64,000 bases of DNA from the sequence record MH494197.1; one strand, given 5' to 3'. Source of the stretch: Escherichia phage CMSTMSU. Positions 20,827 to 23,424 of the stretch are shown in pieces. Below the pieces are notes generated by a model. That model saw only the letters and a list, made by a program, of their open reading frames with translations, did no database searches and was not told where the DNA came from. Each line of letters starts with the position of its first letter. Position 1 is the stretch's first letter. Both the position numbers and the translations under genes were made by a program.

Positions 20827-21097
20827 ATCCTTATTCTTTTGTAATGTTTAGTTTAGAAACGAAATGGTTTTTGCTTCTTCAAATGTCATTGAAGTATATA
20901 CTGGGTTCCAATTATCGTCAAGATCTGTAAGTACTTTAACTTCCATTACATCTTCAGGTGTGTAGAATTGCCATGTGTTATGATCTGGTTCATAATTAGG
21001 GTCTAGTGTGAAAACTGTTCCATTCTGACCATAAACTTGTCCATCCTCTAATAGCTCACGAAATAAGTCTTCCCCAGTTGTTGGGTCTTCGTATGCA

Positions 21098-21415
21098 TTA
21101 TAAAAGGAAAACAACATTCTCAACATCAGTTCGGGTAGTACCATCGTCTTCATCATATTCAACCAAACGGTCCTGATGAAATACTAGGTCAATAGCACCA
21201 ATGCGAGGTTTATTATGTGGAGTTTTGATTTCTTGCTGGGAATTGTAATCCATACGTTCAGTACTGATGAATACACCACTTGGTGTGATTTCAATACCAG
21301 ATACATTTTCTGGTGAATAATAAGAGTCACACATATCATCAATATGCATGTGCTCATGATACACTTCCATTTCAGGGTTCTGCATCAACAGTGCTGCTAG
21401 GTCTTTTGCTTTCAA
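21098..21415 (-). CDS. hypothetical protein, paralog of 22380..22805
   Basis: MKAKDLAALLMQNPEMEVYHEH...ITPSGVFIS vs MKSHDLAKLLLSQPNLDIYHYD...VTPSGIFTT. Confidence 0.35.
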   Translation of the reverse strand: MKAKDLAALLMQNPEMEVYHEHMHIDDMCDSYYSPENVSGIEITPSGVFISTERMDYNSQQEIKTPHNKPRIGAIDLVFHQDRLVEYDEDDGTTRTDVENVVFLL

Positions 21416-22004: not shown

Positions 22005-22379
22005 TGTACCATCATATGTAATATGGAGTTTAGAATCTGCGTCAAAAGACGATCTGAAATAGCTTCATAATCATCTTCAGGAACTGCTTCAATAAGACGG
22101 GCCATTAGTCCAGATGTTACGCGGTAATCACTCATTTTTAATCCTTTTTTATTTTTCAAGTTTATCAATAATAGAAGGTGATACTTTTACATTGAATTCA
22201 GAATCAGGAAAATCTTTAGAAAATGAATCAATTTGTTCTTGTGAAAGTTCTTCTTTTGTGGAAATAACATTTTAACTAAATTTTTACCACATTCAATTGC
22301 TTCATCATACGACATAGTTTCCCATGTTCCATGCCAAGTACTAGGTTCATATTCTGTCAGTACAGAAATGAAATCAATA

Positions 22380-22805
22380 TCATCGGGTGTATACCAAACA
22401 GCATTTTGATTCCTGATGGTGCTGATTGATTTTACCTAATAAAACAATTGGCTTTTCATAAGGAATGTTAAATATCAACCCAGATTCTAAGTTAAGAACA
22501 GTTTGAATAGATGAACCCTCCAATTTTGGAGTAATAGTACCATCCTTAAAGAAAATTTGTACATGACCCAAGAGTGGGGTTTCATATGGTGTAAGTACAT
22601 TTTCAGAAACTGATGTGGGTTTTGCCGTTGTGAAAATACCAGATGGGGTGACCATTAATTTATTATCAAAATTCTGATAATGCAATTCACTATCCACATC
22701 ATAATGATAAATGTCTAGATTTGGTTGAGATAGTAGTAATTTTGCTAAATCATGAGATTTCATTTTATTTCTCCAAAGAAAAGGAGAGTCACAATGACTC
22801 TCCAT
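22380..22805 (-). CDS. hypothetical protein, paralog of 21098..21415
   Basis: Shared N-terminal and central motifs with 21098..21415. Confidence 0.35.
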   Translation of the reverse strand: MESHCDSPFLWRNKMKSHDLAKLLLSQPNLDIYHYDVDSELHYQNFDNKLMVTPSGIFTTAKPTSVSENVLTPYETPLLGHVQIFFKDGTITPKLEGSSIQTVLNLESGLIFNIPYEKPIVLLGKINQHHQESKCCLVYTR

Positions 22806-22829
22806 ATATTTTATTGTAAAACTTTGAGT

Positions 22830-23248
22830 TTGTAAAGCATTCCTTCACAAAAACTCATAATGTCTTCTAGCGTGTTAGTACTACCATAGTCTTCAGCCTC
22901 TTCTAGCATAGCATGAATGGCTTTACATTGACTAACATATTCTTCAAGAATTGGTACACAATCCTCGATAGGGTAAAACGATAACTGTTACCAGTACCTA
23001 CCTGCAATGCCCGCAGTGTTCATAATACCCTCTACAAATGCATCAACGTACTCAGGTAACTCTTTGTATAGTTCATCCAATTGTAGGTGCTTCGTGTAGA
23101 AATGGCTCTGTAAATGCCAGTTGTGAGCAGCAGCACTTAAAAATAAACTATTCTCAATAAATGTAAGTAGTACTTCATCATAAGAACTATCTTCTTCAGT
23201 ATCTCCGATAAAGTCCATTACATGTCGTAAATCATTAATATTTTCCAT
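22830..23248 (-). CDS. ferritin/Dps-like four-helix-bundle protein (tentative, frameshifted)
   Basis: AAHNWHLQSHFYTKHLQLDELYKELPEYVDAFVEGI resembles Dps signature (HWNV.G..F..LHE.FEE.Y.E....VD). Confidence 0.3.
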
Positions 23249-23424
23249 AAATCTCTCCTTAGAGTTATTCTATGGTATTTAGTTAATAATAAAGGTAACT
23301 TCAGGATTCATTTCTGAAACTGCATTTCTCTTACTTCTATTCCATAGTACTCTATTGTTATATAATGAAGAATCACAAATTATAAGTAAGCAATTCCTTA
23401 ATCTACTTACAGTACTTTGATTAC

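Follow-up and report, generated by a model that had tools for sequence, protein, structure and literature searches.

A Divergent Dps-Like Member of the DUF5856/RI.-1 Family Encoded by Escherichia Phage CMSTMSU

Does Escherichia phage CMSTMSU encode a ferritin-like protein, and if so, what might such a protein do? The question was raised by a 64,000-nucleotide stretch of sequence record MH494197.1 (hereafter, the window), in which the original prediction tentatively placed a Dps/ferritin-like protein of about 140 aa at 22830–23248. The window is AT-rich (~35% GC), carries nearly all of its open reading frames (ORFs) on the minus strand, and shares 97–99% nucleotide identity with jumbo E. coli myoviruses, namely Ecwhy_1 and fEgEco12 (classified as or proposed to be Asteriusvirus) and the unclassified EC.P1. 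We identify this gene as the Asteriusvirus ortholog of phage T4 rI.-1 (Pfam DUF5856, PHROG 858). Homology and fold almost certainly make its product, a 146-aa four-helix bundle, a divergent viral offshoot of the Dps (mini-ferritin) family. Taken as a whole, the evidence favors a Dps-like metal-handling protein with inter-subunit di-iron sites that is made late and is partly particle-associated, a reading we regard as probable.

The peptide on which the prediction was based, AAHNWHLQSHFYTKHLQLDELYKELPEYVDAFVEGI, is indeed encoded on the minus strand (23024..23134), where it forms residues 39–75 of the frame that begins at ATG 23248, and the match of this frame to DUF5856 lies far beyond chance. 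As read in the window, the ORF comprises 86 codons and a premature TAA (22988..23248, minus strand; TAA at 22988–22990). Past this codon, the same frame runs on until a second TAA at 22811–22813, so the gene span was corrected from 22830–23248 to 22811..23248 (438 nt here, terminal TAA included; 441 nt in intact relatives). The window itself holds no open frame of the anticipated length of about 140 aa (86 aa here; 146 aa in those relatives). Measured against the Pfam PF19174 (DUF5856) gathering threshold of 34.6 bits, the read-through product scored 86.3 bits (E = 3e-24) and covered the whole profile, and the 86-aa ORF alone scored 45 bits (E = 2.3e-11) over profile positions 1–37 of 94. A full-length DUF5856 domain in a single ORF is prevented in the window by the TAA at 22988–22990 and is recovered after restoring three bases. 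Judged by the helix limits of an AlphaFold2 model, the 86-codon product would cover only a short N-terminal helix, helix A, and helix B. The intact ortholog matches phrog_858 ("starvation-inducible transcriptional regulator") with E = 4.9e-35.

An exhaustive profile search returned 758 cluster representatives at E ≤ 1e-3, and tblastn retrieved 391 phage records with this protein as the query and 1,509 with a Kuttervirus member, spanning Asteriusvirus and RaK2-like jumbo phages, Ackermannviridae, and T-even and other T4-like phages. The closest orthologs, from Ecwhy_1 (QAY00544), fEgEco12 (XBS49341), PBECO4 (YP_009150369), and phAPEC6 (gp306c), are 90–100% identical in protein sequence and share the genomic position and downstream hairpin; their genes are intact, whereas the window copy has three deletions. 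T4 rI.-1 (alias MobD.6, NP_049716) matches DUF5856 with E = 5e-33 and keeps H42, H45, H54, D69, and E73. Both proteins are small, hydrophilic, and acidic, with an H-x2-H-x8-H...D-x3-E set and a C-terminal YKL, although they are only 23% identical and the jumbo-phage version adds an acidic N-terminal segment of ~25 residues with a short helix. The family-invariant residues H45, H54, Y61, D69, E73, and Y140-K141-L142 are all present here and occur in 61–64 of 64 diverse relatives.

The gene is not new. An identical protein has been deposited with a Dps-like label, near-identical (99%) phages annotate the intact 146-aa gene as a "starvation-inducible DNA-binding protein", the family is catalogued in Pfam and PHROGs, and one paper uses the term "ferritin"; the finding thus carries little weight for this window in particular. 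A literature search on "DUF5856" returned no papers, and the papers on jumbo phages CBB and PA5oct do not mention ferritin, Dps, or starvation. We file the gene under DUF5856/RI.-1: it would work most like Dps, yet it is not a canonical Dps.

The relation to Dps emerged most clearly from profile searches. A single-sequence search of the Protein Data Bank (PDB) gave marginal matches only, 22 of 24 being Dps, and a profile built from 24 sequences matched 16 chains, every one of them Dps. With a 64-sequence family profile, whose members reach down to ~22% identity, Staphylococcus aureus Dps was matched at E = 1.9e-9 (2d5k_A), alongside Bacillus subtilis MrgA (2chp_A, 5.1e-7), Bacillus anthracis Dlp-2 (1jig_A, 6.4e-7), and Listeria innocua Dps (1qgh_A, 1.6e-6); Dps proteins made up the top ~20 matches. 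In a scan of NCBIfam, the Dps model was the sole match. Structure prediction, which had been proposed as a check for a four-helix bundle, yielded an AlphaFold2 model (predicted local distance difference test score, 84.4) with four long helices in ferritin order: an A–B hairpin, a long crossover, and a C–D hairpin. Because this is ferritin topology, the objection that no ferritin-like fold would be predicted falls away. The profile match, the predicted topology, and the ligand spacing described below together support the tentative Dps/ferritin-like call.

Bacterial Dps proteins (1qgh, 2d5k, 2chp, 1jig, and E. coli Dps) share with this protein the ferritin-type four-helix bundle, a counterpart of Tyr50, and a helix-D motif, although identity to the structural matches is only ~15–24%. 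BLASTP against Dps of the host E. coli found nothing significant, which argues against recent capture from the host. Starting from E. coli Dps, a search listed no relatives below 80% identity, and the resulting Dps profile added almost nothing. Canonical Dps genes are carried by Lactobacillus plantarum myoviruses, "Gratiaviridae", and other gut phages, and their suggested role is to restrict damage from iron and peroxide while infection proceeds (PMC6669764; PMC8008677). Those phage-borne proteins are described as homologues of bacterial Dps, whereas DUF5856 is a separate and far more divergent lineage found in large Gram-negative myoviruses.

Would the protein be able to bind metal? In Listeria Dps, His31, His43, Asp58, and Glu62 are established inter-subunit ferroxidase ligands; the PDB title of 2bjy names an H31G-H43G mutant. 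We mapped these positions from the hmmsearch alignment, counting residue numbers off the alignment, and scored conservation over the 64 relatives. The putative metal-site stretch spans the end of helix A and helix B (23030..23125, minus strand). H45 (codon 23114–23116) aligns with His31, H54 (23087–23089) with His43, and E73 (23030–23032) with Glu62, and all three are conserved in 64/64 relatives. D69 (23042–23044), the counterpart of Asp58, and Y61, the counterpart of Tyr50, are each conserved in 63/64. The stretch also holds D58, which corresponds to Asp47, and H42 (23123–23125), which is present in 57/64. The spacing of the aligned residues on helix B is identical to that of Listeria Dps. 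The His and Asp/Glu spacing that had first suggested a ferroxidase center therefore does match that of Dps, at positions that hardly vary within the family.

H45, not H42, is most likely the first ligand, since hmmsearch to four Firmicute Dps proteins places H45 on the ferroxidase His and H45 is the better conserved of the two (64/64 versus 57/64); H42 could serve as an auxiliary ligand. An ungapped register drawn by eye against E. coli Dps (H42 = His51, H54 = His63, D69 = Asp78, E73 = Glu82) was dropped, as hhalign supports it at only 20–32%. H54 and D69/E73 lie 15–19 residues apart on one helix and so cannot make up a site within a single subunit; a two-fold partner subunit would presumably be needed, as in Dps. 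The ExxH motif of the intra-subunit di-iron ferritin/bacterioferritin site (E...ExxH...E...ExxH on helices A–D) was not found at any of the six His residues (H9, H42, H45, H49, H54, and H113), none of which has Glu at −3, so the protein lacks that type of site. On these sequence grounds, we judge metal binding or ferroxidase chemistry to be about as easily right as wrong.

The mechanism that we consider most consistent with these features would proceed as follows. Subunits would pair antiparallel along helix B, as in Dps, and assemble into dimers or higher oligomers. H45 and H54 of one subunit, possibly aided by H42 and D58, would face D69 and E73 of the other to create a di-iron ferroxidase site, at which Fe(II) would be bound and oxidized by H2O2 or O2. 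Such oxidation would take away Fenton reagents and may thereby protect DNA. Production of the protein probably occurs late, and at least some of it probably ends up packaged with the particle or attached to it, because family members have been recovered from the purified virions of at least two myovirus lineages, with a third by annotation only.

The virion evidence comes from published proteomes. In CsCl-purified particles of phAPEC6, the 90% identical gp306c was detected with 6 unique peptides and 65.8% coverage, which ranks seventh among 62 virion-proteome proteins (PMC7247149). Kuttervirus Sajous1 gp217 was detected in particles by mass spectrometry with 10 peptides (PMC10892097), and we confirmed it as a DUF5856 member (E = 1.3e-28); it has 117 aa and lacks the N-terminal extension of the jumbo-phage protein. 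Its authors called it ferritin on the basis of Phyre2 and invoked "Ferrojan horse" entry, but they detected no requirement for TonB or FeoB in infection (PMC10892097). For the Klebsiella T4-like phages VMC03/04, a "starvation-inducible transcriptional regulator" is listed with 26/27 spectra (PMC13119998), the link to this family being by annotation only. Whether the protein is a genuine virion component strikes us as evenly balanced.

A bolder extension holds that DUF5856/RI.-1 proteins are virion-borne mini-ferritins, with phages from T4 to 350-kb jumbo phages packaging or carrying a Dps-like ferroxidase. The enzyme might then guard the packed genome from iron and peroxide, or enter with the DNA to handle iron early, and fusions to other phage proteins together with Dps-like domains in "prohead protease" proteins might represent the packaging route elsewhere. 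We consider this extension doubtful. If true, these proteins would be to phages what ferritin-like cargo is to HK97-fold encapsulins, and they would offer a concrete molecular starting point for the "Ferrojan horse" idea. More generally, at least about 1,500 phage genomes on deposit, T4 included, encode a protein that resembles Dps and retains an intact set of ferroxidase ligands; the protein also recurs in virion proteomes. Iron binding or oxidation and a particle location, if true, would give T4 rI.-1 a function and would test ideas about phage-carried iron.

Several observations weigh against the interpretation as a particle-associated, metal-handling Dps relative. A search with the Ferritin/Dps profile, another check that had been proposed, missed the curated cut-offs: PF00210 (Ferritin) scored 14.3 bits where 24.5 are needed, and NF006975 (Dps) scored 16.2 bits against a cut-off of 114. 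The probability assigned by hhalign to E. coli-type Dps was only 20–32%, and Foldseek E-values were just ~1e-2. The A–B loop is 3 residues shorter than in Dps, the B–C loop is short, and AlphaFold2 predicts no helix over residues 80–94, where the BC helix at the two-fold interface would be expected. In Dps, a Trp comes directly after the first ferroxidase His; here it is out of register, with L46 at the position of Listeria Trp32 and W44 located before H45, and D58 is kept in only 20/64 relatives. The members in Ackermannviridae and T4 have 117–128 aa, below any characterized Dps in size. A sequence search of the PDB found no solved structure of any DUF5856 member, the best matches being Dps proteins themselves. 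The phAPEC6 particle list also includes thymidylate synthase, a RecA-like protein, and a single-stranded DNA-binding protein, so co-purification is possible (PMC7247149). Finally, the only genetics on the family connects T4 rI.-1 with lysis inhibition, not with iron (PMC2962797).

That genetic link underlies one of three other functional explanations. The protein may be an accessory factor in lysis inhibition (LIN) that, like T4 RI.-1, modulates RIII and hence the RI-T antiholin-holin pair, its ferritin-like fold being incidental. T4 rI.-1 belongs to the same Pfam family, and its overexpression prolongs LIN only with RIII present and relieves RIII toxicity (PMC2962797); moreover, the gene adjoins rI in many T4-like phages. 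The T4 effects are overexpression phenotypes, however, with no deletion phenotype and no direct interaction described (PMC2962797). The rI/rI.1 adjacency that marks the T4 lysis-inhibition module was not found among the neighboring genes here; the flanking genes match only PHROGs of unknown function, and none is RI-like by annotation. Phage RaK2 encodes a 73% identical ortholog, yet rI, rI.1, rIII, and t are reportedly all missing from it (PMC3622015). An accessory role in lysis would also leave the His/His/Asp/Glu set, invariant across 64 members, and the virion detection unexplained, and we consider it decidedly unlikely. Somewhat less remote, though still improbable, is a non-enzymatic virion protein in which the bundle is a capsid-internal, inner-body, or tail-associated building block and the polar residues are interface residues or structural metal ligands. 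Detection in particles would be expected of such a protein, but the proteome lists also hold cytoplasmic enzymes, no cryo-EM density has been assigned to the protein (PMC7247149), and the conserved residues coincide with the ferroxidase ligands of Dps in both identity and spacing, a match difficult to account for if no metal chemistry is involved.

The third explanation takes the product names at face value. The GenBank, RefSeq, and PHROG product names, as given for Ecwhy_1, fEgEco12, PBECO4, T4 RefSeq, and phrog_858, describe a DNA-binding protein or starvation-inducible transcriptional regulator, and phrog_3636 ("DNA binding protein") is matched at E = 2.2e-6. These names are inherited from similarity to Dps. 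E. coli Dps binds DNA through a lysine-rich tail. The phage protein has an isoelectric point (pI) of 4.34 and a net charge of about −19, compared with a pI of 5.72 for E. coli Dps; its first 25 residues include 9 Asp/Glu versus 1 Lys/Arg, and the Lys/Arg-rich DNA-binding tail of E. coli-type Dps is not present. For such a strongly acidic protein with an acidic N-terminus, we do not expect DNA to be bound in the manner of E. coli Dps. A Pfam search gave no DNA-binding domain. Since the lysine-rich tail is absent, the protein is probably metal-handling rather than a DNA binder or transcription factor, and a DNA-binding regulator appears extremely unlikely. Product names such as "transcriptional regulator" are misleading for the DUF5856 family.

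Why, then, is the frame broken in the window? Relative to the Ecwhy_1 gene, the sole difference is the loss of three single bases. A C and a G are missing near 23013–23015, the G from a G4 run, and a further C has dropped out of a C4 run near 22971, which puts two of the three losses in 4-base homopolymers. The three deletions amount to a −2/−1 compensated frameshift, with the frame regained 41 nt on. They bound a segment (22971..23015, minus strand) that reads AGIAGRYW*QLSFY in place of RGALQVGTGNSYRFT, which garbles residues 79–92 and creates the TAA. Ecwhy_1, EC.P1, PBECO4, phAPEC6, and fEgEco12 all carry an uninterrupted gene of 441 nt encoding 146 aa. The same kind of damage pervades the surrounding sequence. 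Over the first 25 kb, the window differs from fEgEco12 by 141 deletions and 3 insertions, and 63 of 109 single-base indels fall in runs of at least 5 bases, though such runs hold only ~2.5% of bases. As a result, 38 of 48 annotated genes in these 25 kb are broken, among them those for the tail sheath, the tail tube (two genes), the neck, the small terminase, lysozyme, and thymidine kinase; the tail sheath gene (window ~5021–7670) is fragmented into at least 5 ORFs.

The interrupted frame is very probably a sequencing or assembly artefact, because a viable phage could not have 38 of 48 genes broken, the tail sheath included. A genuine pseudogene, in which the phage truly has the three deletions and makes only the 86-aa fragment, would account for the in-frame TAA in the sequence as given, and one of the three deletions does fall outside homopolymers. 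An equal deletion pattern, however, breaks the essential sheath, tube, neck, and terminase genes, the 141:3 ratio of deletions to insertions is strongly homopolymer-biased, and the gene is intact in every relative examined. It is also under strong purifying selection within the lineage, with a ratio of nonsynonymous to synonymous substitution rates (dN/dS) of 0.045 between Ecwhy_1 and PBECO4. We therefore give the pseudogene scarcely any credence. Stop-codon recoding and programmed frameshifting were likewise rejected, given that the frame is uninterrupted in relatives, similar breaks occur in 38 of 48 genes, and no tRNA genes were found in the window. The pervasive deletions were seen in window 1–25000, and the whole 64-kb window is probably alike. 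Because the window is full of homopolymer deletion errors, any frameshift, short ORF, or in-frame stop is presumed to be an artefact; in practice, observations of ORF length or in-frame stops in this sequence are suspect.

The flanks of the gene hold additional signals. A Shine–Dalgarno sequence, AAGGAG, was read off the sequence 6 nt upstream of the ATG (23255..23260, minus strand). Beginning 7 nt past the stop codon is a terminator-like hairpin (22773..22803, minus strand) with a 9-bp stem (GGAGAGTCA/TGACTCTCC), a 3-nt loop, and then a T-rich run; its RNA fold is −16.3 kcal/mol (z = −4.3). The 66-nt intergenic stretch shows zero substitutions among the window, PBECO4, and phAPEC6, the window being one T short in the T run; for comparison, PBECO4 and Ecwhy_1 differ from each other at 74 of the 441 nt of the gene. 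In RaK2, the hairpin stem is kept and the loop is different. The T4 rI operon has both late and early promoters (PMC2962797). The T4 late-promoter core TATAAATA occurs 0 times on either strand of window 1–64000, versus 9.5 ± 2.9 expected from shuffles, and scanning for sigma-70 promoters around the gene turned up no more matches than in shuffled sequence; we assign no promoter to the gene. Upstream of the RaK2 ortholog, TATAAAT lies ~35 nt from the start codon. The minus-strand genes at 20831–21415 and 22149–22763 correspond to fEgEco12 g263 and g260 and are phrog_18200 paralogs (E = 1.4e-83 and 2.9e-70), one of which lies immediately downstream of the Dps-like gene.

Other features concern the family beyond the core bundle. 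Residues 1–24 (window ~23177–23248) form an acidic segment specific to jumbo phages; it contains a short helix, and R8 and D12 are invariant in it (DLRxxMDF). The segment is absent from Kuttervirus members, and the shorter stretch of T4 does not conserve R8/D12; it could be a docking or targeting peptide. Two NCBI entries named "DUF5856 family protein [Escherichia coli]" (P0002 and P0003) are 88–90% identical and lie on contigs of 6–88 kb; they are most likely jumbo-phage DNA in E. coli assemblies, not chromosomal genes. Among metagenomic relatives, DUF5856 is fused to an N-terminal cytidyltransferase (P0160), to a phrog_760 domain faintly reminiscent of DUF2213 (P0076), and to DUF3008 (P0067). 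The N-terminal domain of P0076 drew only a DUF2213 match from Pfam (E = 0.17) and none from the PDB, so this protein stays only a lead as a prohead-protease-like carrier. Fold matches in BFVD include proteins named "prohead protease" that bear a Dps-like domain. DUF5856 also occurs in the 832-aa protein P0157 with a long Gln-rich linker, and proteins of ~200–390 aa carry it with unannotated C-terminal extensions (for example, P0042 and P0077).
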